Assembly (NCBI GenBank): GCA_976226885.1 | Contig: OZ320317.1 | Span: 33,604,001-33,668,000, forward strand | Length of the DNA stretch: 64,000 bases | DNA from: Iphione sp. A-MEVVRFRX5 | Lineage: Eukaryota | Direction of reading: 5' to 3' | Shown here: piece by piece, positions 18,701 through 42,788 of the stretch | Layout of the letters: each line of letters starts with the position of its first letter | Numbering within the stretch: the first letter of the stretch is position 1 | Made by a program: the position numbers and the translations under genes | The notes under the pieces: model-generated | The model's input: only the letters and a program-made list of their open reading frames with translations | What the model was told of the DNA's origin: nothing | Databases searched by the model: none

Positions 18701-19657
18701 TAATGACAGCTTTTAAAGCAACGTGCATGGAATGCAACCTGAACTCCATGCATGCTGCAATCCTAGTGTGGAGTCAAGACCCAATTCAGTTTAAACCTCA
18801 CAATTTGTCAAAAGTGTTTTATAGGAAAACCATCAACCTGTGATTGGCGTTGCTCATGCCGTACGTGAGGTTATTAACTTTGAATTATGTCAAAATTTGT
18901 TGTGTTTTTACACGGAATGTTACAATTCTAAATATTCGGACTAATACAGCACGGAATACACCGTGCTGACAGTGGATACTTAAGTAGCTGAGAGAGACAA
19001 TCCATCTTACACGTTTGTCCATATTGGCCGGCTAACAACAGACATGCAGCACAATTGATCATGTCCTTTGACGTCGGGGCCTGTTTCATCCGGACAGGAA
19101 ATAAAATGAAAGAACCTGAAGAAATACTTAGCGTTGTTCGTACGATGGCTTGTCCTCATTACGGGACTGTCCATATTGTCGCCTTGTCCACAGTATGGGT
19201 TGTCCATATTAGACCGTTAAATTGCCCCCTCAAAGGATCCGATTGAAAGGTACATTTTTACCACCCACTTCTTCGGATAATGCAAATGATATGTAATATT
19301 GAAGTACCAATTTAAATACCATACGATTAAGAGCTGAAGAGAGATATCGCGAGGGTATCTGGGTATTTTTTCGTCTCAAAAGGACTGCACCTGCGTGAAG
19401 CTGTGGTGTTGAGTATAGATCAGGACGGAAGAATGCTACAGAAAGAGTCATACAACCACTGATTCGTTTGCTCCGAAGCGAGGTAAATGTCATAAGTAAG
19501 CTTGTCTAGAGACCTCTCTCAATGCAAAAGCAAACCAGAGGGGTTGTTTACCTGGGACAATGTGTCCATTAGTTGGTAAGCAATATGGCATCAGTAACTC
19601 AATTTCAGTTGCCATAAAAATCGGCACACTCAAAGGATGTGTATTTATACACGATAC

Positions 19658-19850
19658 TGTAGCGACAGCGGGGAATACGGAGGGACATTACGCGGAGGGG
19701 CGGAGGGTACGGAGGGAGTCTTGCAGAGGGATCTCAATTGCTATAAATATGCATTGTTTTTCGAATTTGTGGTCAGTTGTGCCTGTGCTCTTCAACAATA
19801 AACTTCATCTTCCTCAACTTATGTCGCCTTCATTATGGCGGAGGCCAACA
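19658..19850 (+). mobile_element. Solo LTR (193 bp) of a sister Gypsy family
   Basis: Starts TGT, ends ACA, and has a perfect 4-bp TSD ATAC (19654-57 and 19851-54). Contains an (A/G)CGGAGGG array, TATAAA (19742-47) and AATAAA (19797-802), and ends ATGGCGGAGGCCAACA, the same MAEAN end as the full element's LTR. Confidence 0.85.
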
Positions 19851-19924
19851 ATACAGAAGACTATAATCCACAATGAACACTTTGCTGTATATTACAATGG
19901 CCAATCGATATTGTTTGGATGGAA

Positions 19925-19942
19925 ATATATATATATATATAT
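19925..19942. repeat. (TA)n microsatellite
   Basis: Direct reading; lies between the solo LTR and the full-length element. Confidence 0.85.
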
Positions 19943-19982
19943 GTACATACGCTTGACATGAAAATCGTCAAAGGCAACGTAT

Positions 19983-20242
19983 TGTTAGCTTCGGCCATAG
20001 CGGAAATAATAAACGTCCAGACTGATCCAAATTTGACTTGAGTTTTTATTCCTGAGGAGTAACATCAACGACAAGATACAGGCGACAACTGAACTTCCCT
20101 CCGCGAACCCCACTCTTATATAGACAAACCATCCCTCCGTCCCTCCGCGGTCCTCCGCACCTCCGCACCTCCGCTAAACCAACAACGACAACCATAACTC
20201 CGCTAACCCCAGAAACTCCGCGAACCAACCAACCCCGCAACA
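19983..20242 (-). repeat. 3' LTR (260 bp)
   Basis: Matches 28393-28668 except for 2 substitutions and two fewer 8-bp CTCCGCAC units. Confidence 0.97.
20045..20050 (-). terminator. Polyadenylation signal AATAAA in the 3' LTR
   Basis: TTTATT on the + strand, downstream of the LTR TATA box in element orientation. Confidence 0.65.
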
Positions 20243-20252
20243 CTGCCCCCCC
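20243..20252 (-). other. Polypurine tract (GGGGGGGCAG)
   Basis: Purine-rich run immediately 5' of the 3' LTR on the minus strand. Confidence 0.8.
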
Positions 20253-20279
20253 GCAACACTTTTCTCGTCCCGAGAAAAA

Positions 20280-21308
20280 CTACACATAGTCATCCAATAC
20301 AACAGAAAACACTTCTTCTACCTCTAGAATGGCTAACTCATCATCGGTATAGAGTTCCAGGTCGTGATCCTCTATACTCAGTTCGTCAGGCCGTTCCATT
20401 TGCCGATGGAACCAAACGAGTATGTCTTTGGTATCCGTCTCGACGGAGTCTCTGTACAGTCTTAAAGTGTGACTCACACTGATGGTTAATCCGTGCACTT
20501 GTCGGGATAGTCTGCCCCTGCCCCGGGCGGAGCGGAGCTCCCAGCCGCGCGGAGGCGGTACATCGGCCGTCAGCGGTCGTGGTGACGCCCATCGCGACCA
20601 GATTTCCGCGTCCAACCGTCCCTCACGGGGCCGCCGGACTGCCTCAGCGGATAAGGTTTCTCTTCGCCTCCTCCGCGGCTCACGCTGCGCGTCGTGGGGG
20701 GCAGCCGGCCTGGCTGGCCCCCCATGTTCGCCCTCCCCCGGTCGTGAGGGAGGTTCCTCTCGATCCTCGCGCCCGAGCCCCTCAGGCAATGTCGGTGGTG
20801 GAGGGGCCGGCCTGGCCCCTTGCTGCACGTTGTGGGGGGTAGCCGGCCTGGCTGGCCCCCCGTGTTCGCCCTCCCCCGGTCGTGAGGGAGGTTCTCCGCG
20901 ATTCTCTTGCCCGGGTCTCTCGGGCAATGTCGGTGGTGGAGGGGCCGGCCTGGCCCCTGGCTGCGCGTCGTGGGGGGTAGCCGGCCTGGCTGGCCCCCCG
21001 TGTTCACCCTCCCCCGGTCGTGAGGGAGGTTCTCCGCGGTTCTCCTGCCCGGGCCTCGCCGACGATGTTGGCGGTGGCAGGACCGGCGGCGTGCCGTGGG
21101 GGGTAGCCGGCCTGGCTGGCCCCCTGTGCTCGTCCTCCCCCGGTCGTGAGGGAGGTTCTCCGCGATTCCCTTGCCCGGGTCTCGCAGGCGAGGTCTGCGG
21201 CGGAGGGGCCGGCCTGGCCCCTTGCTGCGCGTCGTGGGGGGTAGCCGGCCTGGCTGGCCCCCCGTGTTCGCCCTCCCCCGGTCGTGAGGGAGGTTCTCCG
21301 CGGTTCTC
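20280..21308 (-). CDS. C-terminal continuation of the pol/zinc-finger frame beyond a single in-frame TGA
   Basis: Same frame as 21309..27239 (27239-20927 is divisible by 3). Traced by hand with no further stop until TAG at 20280-82. Encodes the remaining Pro-rich repeats and an acidic tail ending ...EVEEVFSVVLDDYV. Confidence 0.75.
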   Translation of the reverse strand, partial: ENRGEPPSRPGEGEHGGPARPATPHDAQQGARPAPPPQTSPARPGQGNRGEPPSRPGEDEHRGPARPATPHGTPPVLPPPTSSARPGQENRGEPPSRPGEGEHGGPARPATPHDAQPGARPAPPPPTLPERPGQENRGEPPSRPGEGEHGGPARPATPHNVQQGARPAPPPPTLPEGLGREDREEPPSRPGEGEHGGPARPAAPHDAQREPRRRRRETLSAEAVRRPREGRLDAEIWSRWASPRPLTADVPPPRGWELRSARGRGRLSRQVHGLTISVSHTLRLYRDSVETDTKDILVWFHRQMERPDELSIEDHDLELYTDDELAILEVEEVFSVVLDDYV

Positions 21309-21614
21309 TCACCCGGGCCTCGCCGGCGATGTTGGCGGTGGAGGGACCGGTGGCGTGTCGTGGGGGGTAGCCGGCCTGGCTTTCCCCCCGTGTTCGCCCT
21401 CCCCCGGTCGTGAGGGAGGTTCCCCGCAATTCTCTTGCCCGGGTCTCGCAGGCGAGGTCTGCGGCGGAGGGGCCGGCCTGGCCTCTTGCTGCGCGTCGTG
21501 GGGGGTAGCCGGCCTGGCTGGCCCCCCGTGTTCGCCCTCCCCCGGTCGTGAGGGAGGTTCTCCGCGGTTCTCCTGCCCGGGCCTCGCCGGCGACGTCGGC
21601 GGCGGAGGGACCGG
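20682..21614 (-). repeat. Coding tandem repeat, about 7 units of 138/126 bp (46/42 aa; PARPGQENRGEPPSRPGEGEHGGPARPATPH...)
   Basis: First-codon + strand positions 21588, 21450, 21324, 21186, 21060, 20922 and 20784 give spacings of 138, 126, 138, 126, 138 and 138. Confidence 0.95.
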
Positions 21615-24600
21615 CTCGACCCTTTCCAGCGTAGAAGTCGGGGAGCCAGCCGAGTGGCCTCCCTGGCCGTGGGAGCTGTCCCCGGGTAGCGGTGAAGCGC
21701 TCATCGTTGCTACCAAGGCTCTCGTAGCCGTTGCCGTCTCAGTGGCTGGCGACGGCTGGCCCCCCTGGTTCGGCGGAGGAGGCTGGAGCTCCCCCGCCTG
21801 GCCCTTGGTCGTTTCACCTTCGGCAGCCCTCCTTCCTTGCCACTCTAGGACCTCTCGTGCCAGGCTTCTCGGGTCCCGCTGCGGTAGCCTCGTCGGTGGC
21901 TGCTGAACCGGTGGGGAGTCCCGGGAGCCTTCCTCCGCACCTGCTGGGGTGATGGCCTCATGGACCTCCACCACGCCTCCGACCTCCACGTACTGTAATT
22001 CCGTCGACGCCTGGGCCTTCTTCGTGGGTACATCCTCTTCCTCCTCCCCCGACACTGGCAACTTGTCAGCTAACTCTTCCTCGGAGGAGCTCTCCTTCCT
22101 TCCCCCGGTAACGCTCACCGGACCTTCGGCGGGGACGACTTGGAAGGTATCCCCAAACAAGCTCCTCAAGGTAGCGGCCACTGTTGCCACGTCCTGGGGG
22201 GAGGCTCGGGGGCCCTCCTCCTCGAGCCGCTTGATGATATCGCTGAGGCTTGCTGGCGTTGGGGGCAAGCTTGGTGTCGACAAATTCGATAGACGCCCGG
22301 CCCGCTGGTTCCTCGTCTCCGGTGTTTGTAACCGCGGAGTGGCTGCCCGGTCGGGCAAGGCCGGCGGTGTCCTCTGCTCGATGGACAAGGGCGAGGGAAC
22401 GGAGGGCAGCTGCCCCCCCTTCTTGCTGATCAAAGGGGAGAGAGCACGCCCTCGACCTCGCCCTCGCTTGGGGGCCAGCCCCCCTTCAGCTGCCCCCAAT
22501 CTTCTCTTCGCTGCCGGGCTGCCCTTCGCTGCTGCCTCCGCCGTCGTCGCTGGCGGCCCCAGCATTGCCCGTTCGAGGGCCTCCGCCGCCTCCACCACCC
22601 TCGCCACCGTAGCGGGGGAGCTGCCCGGGGTACCGGGGTGTCTAACCTGCAAGTCGGAGATAGTCCCCCTCAGTTCCTTGCAAAGCGATCTTGGGGATTT
22701 TTCCTCCGCCGCCATCTGCTTCTTCCTTGGGGGAGACCTCGCCGTCGCTCTCCTAGGGGTCCCTCCGCGGGTCCGCACCCCTTTCCTCTTACGGGGAGGC
22801 GAAACTGCTGTTGAGGTGGAGGCCTCAGGCTCCCACTCACTGTCACTTGCCTCAGTTACCGCGGTGCCCTCCTCGCTCGTCTCGCTATCAGCAGGTTTGG
22901 CCGCCGCTGCTACTGCCACCGACTTGGGTCGACCTCCGGAACTCCCCTCACTCTCTTCCCCCGAGCCTCCGTCCTCTCCCTCCTCCTCGACTGCTTCGAC
23001 CCTTGCTCCCTGTGCCGCCACGGCTGGGCTCTTCTTCTTCTTTCCCCGACCGGTCTTCACCTCCGCCGCCTTGCCCTCCGCTTTCTTCGTCGGTGGCTCG
23101 CTGGGCCGCCCTCTGAGGGTGCTCGAACCCCCCACTCTGAAGAACTTGAAGTAGCCCTCCTTCGACTTCTTAAGGAGGGCTTTTACTCCGCCCTCCTCCT
23201 CGTGCTGCCTCGTCTCCAAATGTCTTTTGAGATCCTCCCAGCGTGAGAAGACCTTCTCTTTACACCGGGCCGACGGACACGGCCACGCATAACCTTCCTC
23301 TGCGTGCAATCGGGTATGCCTCTGAAGATTATCCTTTCGGTCGCATGTATAGGTGCATTGATCGCATTTATACACGAGGTCCTTCTTCCTAGTCATCTTA
23401 GCGGGTCGAGAGGAGTTATGAAGTCCTTCGAACGGTGCAGGCGACTTTATACTTCGCTGACCGCGGAGGTGTGAGTTGCTTCCCTCCGCCGAGCTTTGAT
23501 TGGCTGAGGGTTCCCGCCTCAAACTCGCCAGCGTAACGGTCGCTGTCGCCGGGGAATCCCTCACCGCGGAGGCCGTAGACACCTTTCCTGGCTTCAGTAA
23601 GTCTGCATGGACCACCTTCTCGTGTCGCCCTTTCTGTACTCGATAGACGGCGGAGGATAGAGCCTCCCTCACGACCCACGGCCCTTGCCAGAACCTCTGC
23701 AGCTTCGGAGACAGTCCTTTCTTCTTTAGTGGGTGGAACAGATAAACCGTGTCCCCTGGTTGGTAGTCGGTGTGCCTGACCTTTTTGTTATACCAGTCTG
23801 TCTGGCGGGCAATCCCCTCGTTCATGCGATGATAGGTCAGATCGTGTGCCGCCCTAACTCGCTCCCTCAGGTCAGCTGCGTAGGAGTACACATTCCCCTC
23901 TTCCTCATCCTCCTCCGCGGGTGGGCCTCCGTAGGCCAACTGAAGGGGGAGGGTGGTTTCCCTGTGAAGCATCAGGAAGTTTGGCGAGTATCCGGTCGTT
24001 CGATGAGGCGTAGCACGATAGGCCGCCGTTACGAATGGTAGCCGTAGATCCCAATCAGACTGGTTATCTTCCGCCGAGGTAGCGAGCATATGCTGGAGAG
24101 TTCGATTAAACCTCTCTACCTGGCCGTCGGCTTGAGGGTGGTAGGGGGTGGTCCGAGTCTTCTCTACTCCACATAGGCGTAGCACCTCCGCGACCAGCCT
24201 GGCCTCGAAATTTCTTCCTTGGTCACTATGTAGCACCCGTGGGGGCCCAAACCGACACACCAACTCCCTCACCAGAACGTCGGCGGTGTCCTCCGCTGTC
24301 AAGGTACTCAAGGGGAAAGCCTCGGACCATTTAGTGAAGTGGTCTGAGGCTACTAGTACATACTTGGCACCACGAGCTGTCTCGGGGAAAGGACCCAGCA
24401 CATCAACAGCCACCATCTCCCACGGTCCCCCGGGCTGCCTCCGCTGTAGCCGGGTACGCCGCCGACAGTTGGGACTCCTCCGCTCCAAACACGAACGGCA
24501 TCCGCTTCCCCAGACTTGGATATCGCGCGACATTCCTGGCCAGAAGTACTTCGTTCTCAGGAGCCCCGCCGTCTTCTCCGGTCCTAGATGCCCTCCAAAG

Positions 24601-41275: not shown

Positions 41276-42788
41276 CACTGAAAAAATTAACTTGTCCTGG
41301 CATGGTCTATATGACAATTTTTAGGGTTGTCATTGAGTTTTTGACAAACTAAATGATGAATGACAATGGTATAGTCAAACTGACAATATTGTCTTGTCAT
41401 AAATATGTCACACACTTGTCAAATCGTCCTTTAGGTCTCACTGCAACAGTTATTTTATAAGCAAAGTGACAGAATCTAAAAGCACATTATTTCAGGGAAA
41501 TCAATACATATACAACCATGAAATATATCAGTATTACTAATAGAATTACTTAACTCCCTATCAATGTATTCCTGAGATCAGTGAAAGAAAGAAAAATATG
41601 TCATTCAAATTCAACTACAGCATACCTTGAAAAACAGTTATGGAGTTAGGAGCCACTTGTCTGAGGTGAGTGAACATATCAACTCATTACATACCTTTAA
41701 AATGGTCCTAGAAAGAAGTGCTTTATACCAAAATGAAGCTAATAACCTCCTCTACACTGCTGTTGCATTGGTTTTGCTCTTACATGAGGCTTAGGGCCTT
41801 AGATTTATGAAAATGTGCGATCGCGATATATCGCAAATACTGCACAGCCAAAAATCTGACAAACTTTTTTCTTACTTCATCTTCTTGATACAAGATTTTT
41901 TTTCTCATATCAAGAAGATGAAGTAAGAAAAAAGTTTGTCAGTCAGACAAGAAACATTTACAATTACAAGAAGAAAAGTACTTATAACAAGTAAAATTAT
42001 CTTTAAATATCTTAATCAACCTCCTACTTACTAAGAAACTATCTTGTTTTGTGATACAAAATCTTAAAATAGGAAAATTTTCTAGACCAAGAAAGTGATT
42101 TTTGGCTGTGTGAGGGCAACTATCCCAGCCAGTACACAACATTTTAAGAACGTTTTCATGTAGTTACAATGTTTGATACCATTTTACAACATTTTATGAT
42201 AAGTTTTCTGTTGGGTACAATGTTTGCATCCATTTTAAAACATTTTAAGAACTTTTTCTGGGGGGAACAGGAGATGGCCAAGGCAGGGGGAGCACCTGAC
42301 AAGGTCTGAGGACTTCTAGGAGCAGCAGGAGGACAGCCAAGGTGGGGGAAGAAACTGATGAGGTGTAGGGGCTTCTAAGAGCAGCAGGAGGATGTCCAAT
42401 GTCTGTTTTGCATTGTCCATTTGATATATCAGTCTAGTAGTATAAATGATCTTATGACAAGTGTCTTTTTCATTGTGACAAGGATAAAATTGTTATTTTG
42501 ACAAGTTTATGACAACCTCATAGTCAAAAACTTTGAGCGACGATGCTAAACTTGTACATTGTATGACAGTCAATTGGATGAGGTAAAACTTGTCACTAGA
42601 GACAACCCTATGACAAGTTTAGTCCTTCATAGTGACAAATTTAACCTTGTTATATTAACAAGTTTATGACAACCTTCCTTGTCACAAACTTACCGACAAT
42701 GCTAAACTTGTACATTGTATGACCGTCAACAGGACAAGGCAAAACTTGTTACTAGAGACAAGGCCAGGACAAGTTTATTTTTTCAGTG
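41276..42788. mobile_element. Non-autonomous EnSpm/CACTA-type DNA transposon (1513 bp)
   Basis: TIRs CACTGAAAAAAT(T/A)AACTTGTCCTGG (24/25 match), a 2-bp TSD AA, dense subterminal TGACAA/TTGTCA repeats at both ends, and a ~156-bp tandem duplication (42453-42764). Confidence 0.85.
41843..42110. mobile_element. Nested 268-bp EnSpm-like MITE
   Basis: Perfect 14-bp TIRs CACAGCCAAAAATC / GATTTTTGGCTGTG with a 2-bp TSD TG; contains a 35-bp perfect inverted repeat. Confidence 0.75.

Follow-up and report, generated by a model that had tools for sequence, protein, structure and literature searches.

Simple LTR retrotransposons are usually taken to depend on host transcription factors, and where integration is tethered, as with chromodomain integrases, Ty5-Sir4, and Ty3-TFIIIB, insertions are enriched at the bait. 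Examples of elements that encode a sequence-specific regulator of their own come from complex retroviruses and from plant DNA transposons. According to the accessible parts of the reports concerned, the foamy-virus protein Tas/Bel1 has response elements in two places, namely, the LTR and an internal promoter that precedes its own gene, and carries an acidic C-terminal activation domain (PMC517496, PMC8670036, PMC13220597); Arabidopsis VANDAL elements encode an anti-silencer, VANC, whose motif is present at high density on the cognate elements (PMC5735166, PMC6719617); and Spm TnpA represents a further self-encoded, motif-binding case (bioRxiv 10.64898/2026.08.24.746577). As for target choice, the accessible text on the Drosophila gypsy, ZAM, and Idefix groups describes sequence-biased targets, namely, TATA, CGCG, and ATAT (PMC5408687). 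Our literature search, which covered neither Repbase nor most subscription journals, found no animal Gypsy element with C2H2 fingers matched to sites in its own promoter, and the accessible parts of the papers by Wells et al. (PMC10547256) and on Troyka (PMC12440569) held nothing relevant.

The feature under study is a 193-bp solo LTR of Gypsy family B (positions 19658 to 19850, plus strand), located in the window, i.e., the whole 64,000-nucleotide stretch of DNA analyzed here. It starts with TG and ends with CA, and the best other copies are 94% identical to it. As the initial annotation had stated, it is bordered on both sides by ATAC, the left copy of which was found by sequence inspection at 19654 to 19657 (plus strand); a single LTR between the two copies of a target site duplication, it has neither a primer-binding site nor a polypurine tract. 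Its U3 array (19677 to 19716, plus strand), consisting of predicted binding sites for the finger pair discussed below, contains the four (A/G)CGGAGGG units described earlier, at 19677, 19692, 19700, and 19709, and these are indeed followed by a TATA box (TATAAA, 19742 to 19747, plus strand) and then by AATAAA (19797 to 19802). GCGGAG is present three times in this LTR, against an expectation of 0.08 and a maximum of two in 300 dinucleotide shuffles. Two of the four array units read GCGGAG and the other two ACGGAG, and a young B copy has seven GCGGAG sites; moreover, in a comparison of 30 copies, the solo LTR has a letter other than the most frequent one in 16 of the 193 columns. These ACGGAG units and departures indicate that the solo copy is decaying and that motif retention is a family-level fact. 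The suggestion that retention of the motif reflects function is supported at the level of the family.

Between the solo LTR and its neighbor, a family A element, lies an AT-rich host spacer of 132 bp with an (AT)n run (19851 to 19982, strand not assigned), which starts with the right ATAC of the B element and ends with GTAT, the duplication of the A element (ATAC on the minus strand). The distance of 132 bp reported before is thus the correct gap between the solo LTR and the 3' LTR of A, which begins at 19983, with both duplication copies counted. No match to the spacer was found among other flanks or in the background. The two LTRs are, as noted previously, too diverged to be aligned end to end, a BLASTN comparison with the A LTR yielding only 17- to 24-bp matches, and the 17-mer that they had been said to share occurs once per strand in the window, at 19691 (plus) and at 28559 (minus), within the 5' LTR of A. 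All in all, there is nothing unusual about the solo LTR or about where it lies.

The A element occupies positions 19983 to 28668 and lies, with all of its parts, on the minus strand. Its 5' LTR (28393 to 28668), containing 10 GCGGAG sites, is followed by a primer-binding site (28374 to 28392), which we take to be of the tRNA-Leu type, a gag frame with a CCHC knuckle (27149 to 28474), and a pol frame (21309 to 27305) that specifies protease, reverse transcriptase (RT), RNase H, integrase, two C2H2 fingers (23202 to 23372), and a low-complexity tail. One stop parts this frame, in this copy, from the end of the tail frame (20280 to 21308), which contains tandem repeats and an acidic-hydrophobic stretch of 40 residues (15 acidic, 1 basic, and 16 hydrophobic) at its very end; accordingly, the pol frame measures 1998 amino acids (aa) in the window copy and 2341 aa in two other copies. 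A polypurine tract at about 20243 to 20252 adjoins the 3' LTR (19983 to 20242). With gag, the order PR-RT-RH-IN, LTRs, a primer-binding site, a polypurine tract, and a target duplication, the element, like full-length B copies, has the makeup of Ty3/Gypsy (Metaviridae). Domain searches revealed no env family in the three long frames of A and no catalytic domain in the tail that follows the fingers. The two LTRs differ by two substitutions, and the 5' LTR has two extra 8-bp array units. The target duplication is imperfect, reading ATAG at the 5' end (28669 to 28672, minus strand) and ATAC at the 3' end. Mismatched duplications were seen in 9 of 40 full-length copies and are all accounted for by AG at the 5' end (seven copies) or TT at the 3' end (two copies); AG and TT are the dinucleotides adjoining the LTR at the polypurine tract and the primer site, which suggests that an unprocessed end overhang is sometimes retained in gap repair. 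Elsewhere in the window, an open frame (49996 to 50535, plus strand), possibly a host exon, matches the immunoglobulin V-set weakly, with an E value of 2.5e-4 that does not pass the cutoff, and a region with inverted repeats and internal 156-bp repeats (41276 to 42788), resembling a nonautonomous DNA transposon, includes a 40-bp hairpin (41856 to 41942).

The finger pair of A has the C2H2 ligands and the helix contact positions (-1, 2, 3, and 6) of classical fingers. Finger 1 scored below the cutoff of Pfam zf-C2H2, and a PDB sequence match had an E value of 1.6e-11; in a model of the pair (mean pLDDT of 78), helices were formed by residues 21 to 31 and 53 to 60. A fold search returned nothing at E ≤ 0.001, only weak C2H2 rows, and a protein atlas search gave generic C2H2 clusters and nothing more specific. 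Twelve sequences that are 23 to 88% identical to A agree without exception only at the zinc ligands, at one glycine, and at four positions that contact bases: +6 in finger 1 (R) and -1, +3, and +6 in finger 2 (R, D, and R). A pair of fingers by itself binds weakly, and the linker here is one residue longer than the canonical one. The helices of A, RKDNLQR and RWEDLKR, resemble engineered modules, for which the accessible listings give RSDNLVR for GAG, RSDDLVR for GCG, and RKDNLKN for AAG (PMC5260015, PMC7317221); on the basis of these listings, GCG GAG is the predicted site of the pair in A, B, and C, with a further G at its end predicted for A.

Pairs of this kind follow the integrase in at least eight families: A, B, C, and five more. 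All family counts are lower bounds, resting as they do on exact patterns or listed matches. For B, there were at least 252 exact LTR-end matches and at least 144 finger loci; for A, at least 202 and at least 127; and for C, at least 123 matches. A primer-site pattern had at least 499 further matches, and 13 of the 20 that were fetched contained the finger pair and fall into families D to H; from another set of at least 565 matches, 20 were fetched, mostly Gypsy elements about 55% identical in RT and without fingers after the integrase. In a tree of 11 elements, all from this genome, A, B, and C form one clade. The helices read RKDNL(Q/R)R/RWEDLKR in A, where the contact residues are intact in 28 of 30 copies for finger 1 and 29 of 30 for finger 2, and RKDNLKR/RKDDLRR in C. 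The initial annotation had called the solo LTR a member of a sister family and had proposed reading the helices of a full-length sister element; the label proved right, and the fingers of family B are of the GAG/GCG type, with RKDNLKR and RKDDLRR in four of four young copies and RKDDLRR as finger 2 in eight of the nine older copies having a match. Among the matches listed from other species, P0048 combines an integrase with two fingers (RKGGLTR/RWGDMAR) and P0109 (Mytilus) the C-terminal part of an integrase with a finger; in P0091 as well as in these two, C2H2-like fingers with other helices follow integrase C-terminal regions in other organisms, so the arrangement may be widespread. A separate search for relatives, limited to lengths of 1098 to 3497 aa, gave one integrase-only match. 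Six Gypsy loci from families without integrase-linked fingers (L261, L265, L267, L272, L273, and L275) have long LTRs with other tandem repeats and a third frame, devoid of Pfam matches, in which there is one C2H2-like finger of another kind; its product may play the part of a parallel accessory regulator.

No hexamer outnumbers GCGGAG in the LTRs of A, young B, and C, where it occurs 10, 7, and 9 times against an expectation of 0.1 to 0.3. An aspartate at helix position +2 is known to govern the base neighboring a finger's site, and finger 1 of these three families carries one: the base after GCG-G(A/G)G is G or T in 27 of 27 of their sites, compared to 7 of 20 in families D to H, which lack Asp(+2) in finger 1 (Fisher P = 5.5e-7, a value that overstates the evidence, because A, B, and C are one clade and the correlation amounts to a single evolutionary contrast). 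The solo LTR in the window, with G at three of four sites, was left out of this count as a family B duplicate. In family H, where finger 1 is IQYRLER, 5 of 15 GCG sites are of the GCG-GGN kind and just one has GAG. The LTR sites thus appear to shift along with the helices of each family.

A second set of sites might serve a promoter inside pol. In A, the putative internal promoter (23394 to 23503, minus strand) includes sequence features that suggest such an activity, namely, CCAAT (23499 to 23503), GCGGAG (23484 to 23489), a reverse site (23463 to 23468), a TATA box (23445 to 23451), and a conserved ATG (23394 to 23396). A methionine 5 to 14 residues ahead of finger 1 was found in nine of nine elements, CCAAT upstream of it in eight, and a TATA-like box 44 to 347 nucleotides upstream in seven (44 to 58 nucleotides in A, B, and C and 260 to 347 in D1, D2, E, and F2), and the bodies of B, C, E, and F2 contain no other box of this type; G and H had no upstream TATA match. 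Sites cluster in the 400 bp before the methionine in D1, D2, E, F2, and H (P from 4e-4 to 1e-9) and marginally in B (P = 0.028); the clustering was not significant in A (P = 0.46), C (P = 0.064), or G (P = 0.055). Since autonomous copies have the fingers and the integrase in one frame, a fused product is possible as well.

Family F2 is large and nonautonomous. Two copies were read (L296, G000:C1:74907000-74916900; L282, C1:9269000-9278900), and both encode gag, protease, and the fingers and are missing RT and integrase. This family has at least 150 matches, about 48 of which (counted by hand) share the same 1350-aa frame, with none exceeding 1415 aa among the matches listed. A targeting domain would be expected to go together with an integrase; F2 keeps its fingers without one, although these may act in trans on an integrase. 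The one autonomous relative of F2 that was sampled (L280) has degenerate finger helices.

Taken together, the reading that we regard as reasonably probable, judging from the sequences, is that the solo LTR is a decaying Gypsy end-repeat, that the C2H2 pair of its family serves the element as a transcriptional activator of its own, with the GCGGAG arrays of the LTRs as the predicted binding sites, and that the nearness to A reflects shared ATAT-type targeting plus chance. Self-regulation of this kind is likely in view of the LTR sites tracking the helices, the TATA box and methionine before the fingers, the integrase-less F2, and the acidic C terminus of A. A short transcript from the internal promoter would give a separate finger-plus-tail protein of roughly 1000 aa, which would bind the LTR array and so turn on the full-length RNA; by binding the internal promoter, it would also provide feedback. 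As the site is common to all three, A, B, and C would cross-activate one another, with solo LTRs as passive response elements.

The initial annotation had seen in the 132-bp pair a possible case of tethering, in which fingers fused to integrase lead it to existing GCGGAG clusters, an idea in keeping with their in-frame position, and had proposed comparing insertion distances to GCGGAG and between families. The lack of enrichment, which it had itself named as speaking against the idea, is what we found. With 20 random 9.9-kb stretches as the background and the two index flanks excluded, 2 of 162 flanks had GCGGAG at a distance of up to 200 bp (2.9 expected) and 6 at up to 500 bp (7.8 expected); for A, with the index locus excluded, the respective numbers were 0 of 56 (1.0 expected) and 1 of 56 (2.7 expected). 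Within 1.2 kb, sites were found in 27 of 162 flanks (18.7 expected, P = 0.03), and four flanks had at least three sites (0.64 expected), but these four turned out to be misassigned element interior (L204), a local tandem duplication (L018/L019), a true A-B pair on C4, and host DNA. Among 117 A and 142 B finger loci on 11 large contigs (solos left out), A-B pairs numbered 1 versus 0.34 expected within 12 kb, 2 versus 3.1 within 100 kb, and 27 versus 29.9 within 1 Mb. On contig C1, solos included, A, B, and C had no neighbors within 2 kb among themselves (0.27 expected) or among D to H (0.70 expected) and two from other primer-site families (0.60 expected), i.e., they are no closer than chance to each other or to their finger-bearing sisters. 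At up to 100 kb, there were more A-A pairs than expected (6 versus 1.2), a count that includes old copies and possible duplicates, but clustering at 50 to 100 kb was seen in other families, too. The A-B pair on C4 (L171, G000:C4:70602712-70603535) is on one strand, with an 823-bp AT-rich spacer that lacks GCGGAG; it has a chance probability of about 0.04, and for an A-B gap below 150 bp the expectation is 0.006. However, with about 870 clade members, any pair closer than 150 bp is expected at about 0.1, and the window was chosen for showing one. One copy of A, at C1:35957939 (L259), has as its neighbor, at 530 bp, an LTR from a family that lacks these fingers; another, at C1:85420746 (L258), lies several hundred base pairs from an old and decayed relative in which no array is intact. 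Strong tethering is largely refuted, since the enrichment near the recognized feature that marks tethered integrases was absent, and tethering is a quite improbable explanation of the pair, all the more so as the integrase-less family keeps its fingers; a weak local insertion bias, e.g., toward open chromatin at a bound LTR, may exist. The four bases adjoining the LTR in 164 distinct flanks of A, B, and C were ATAT in 104, ATAC in 17, ATAG in 16, and GTAT in 11, and ATAT flanks extended to ATATAT in 48% of cases versus 16% in the background; element bodies are poor in AT-type sites, which leaves a test for nested insertions little power. A host-repeat hotspot was considered as well and rejected, as only 14 of 163 flanks fell into clusters, seven in all with two members each, and nothing else matched the 132-bp spacer. 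Copies of one host repeat contain one A solo and two B elements (flanks L134, L107, and L177).

A more serious rival to the activator reading is raised by the coding sequences of A, B, and C, the long frames of which hold, on both strands, 55, 51, and 57 GCGGAG sites versus 14, 16, and 18 under synonymous shuffles (three to four times as many), with GCGGAG ranking first or second among all hexamers. The enzyme core alone, delimited in A and C, showed the same (25 versus 6.9 and 29 versus 7.1), and control hexamers had no excess or a slight one; together, synonymous shuffles with these controls and the core-only test ruled out codon or amino acid bias as the cause. These bodies have about 7 sites per kb, compared with 0.19 per kb for random DNA (198 kb). 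Self-recognition might therefore be mainly a matter of anti-silencing or self-limiting repression, with the finger protein coating the element body and keeping it open or unmethylated in the manner of VANC, the specificity of which rests on motif density according to the accessible text (PMC5735166), or else capping expression. GCGGAG contains a CpG, and the observed/expected CpG ratio is 0.82 to 0.91 in the elements versus 0.55 in the background; the body excess was also absent from five families without integrase-linked fingers, as this explanation would have it. On the other hand, E shows no more than a weak excess, D, F2, G, and H, which have fingers and promoter sites all the same, show none, and the tail has no catalytic domain. 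We consider anti-silencing or repression unlikely to be the main role, and it would be either the principal rival of the activator or an addition to it. A role in coating the element's own double-stranded cDNA in the preintegration complex (for end pairing, nuclear import, or protection from self-integration) in place of regulating transcription would suit sites running along the whole of A, B, and C and fingers that can be made within pol; given that the sites of D to H concentrate at two TATA-bearing regions without body painting and that a separate start signal precedes the fingers, it seems the most improbable of all. Hardly better placed is the notion that host Sp/KLF/Egr factors use the arrays as GC-box-like sites, the element's fingers doing something else. 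LTRs commonly have GC-rich boxes ahead of TATA, and the array in the window includes GGGGCGGAG, but the sites move with the element's own helices, the coding excess is confined to finger-bearing families, and the contact residues are invariant.

If the activator reading is taken further, one might picture a Gypsy clade of animals that recognizes itself by means of a C2H2 factor expressed from a promoter within pol, with LTR arrays, about 55 coding-sequence sites maintained by synonymous choice in one subclade, activation combined with a VANC-like anti-silencing function, helix coevolution, and supply in trans by a large integrase-less helper family; this complete picture is offered as a tentative and rather doubtful one. 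With a readable finger code, matching sites, and eight helix/site variants in one genome, the clade would make self-regulation or shielding of an animal transposon testable, and hundreds of solo LTRs would, if the reading is true, be ready-made response elements.

Compared with known systems, the elements share with Ty3/Gypsy a gag with CCHC, the order PR-RT-RH-IN, LTRs, a primer-binding site, a polypurine tract, and a 4-bp palindrome-like target; they differ in having no env, TG...CA ends, a tandem C2H2 pair plus a tail of about 1000 aa after the integrase, and cognate sites in the LTR, in an internal promoter-like region, and (in A, B, and C) in the coding sequence. Tethered integrases likewise have an extra domain at the C terminus, but their enrichment at the bait has no counterpart here. 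Resemblance to VANC and TnpA is seen in the dense short motif, sparse outside the cognate elements, in arrays varying in unit number (as between the two LTRs of A), and in the family-specific combination of protein and motif. VANC and TnpA, however, belong to plant DNA transposons (Mutator-like ones in the case of VANC), with mainly noncoding motifs and proteins that the accessible texts do not describe as C2H2, whereas here a retrotransposon has the motif in excess in its coding sequence. At the sequence level, the layout of our elements is the one described for Tas, with sites both in the LTR and before the start of the factor and, in A, an acidic C terminus. Tas is encoded after env in Spumaretrovirinae, a group to which the env-less A does not belong; in A, the C2H2 pair is in frame with the pol of a Gypsy element, and we claim a likeness of arrangement with Tas, not homology.
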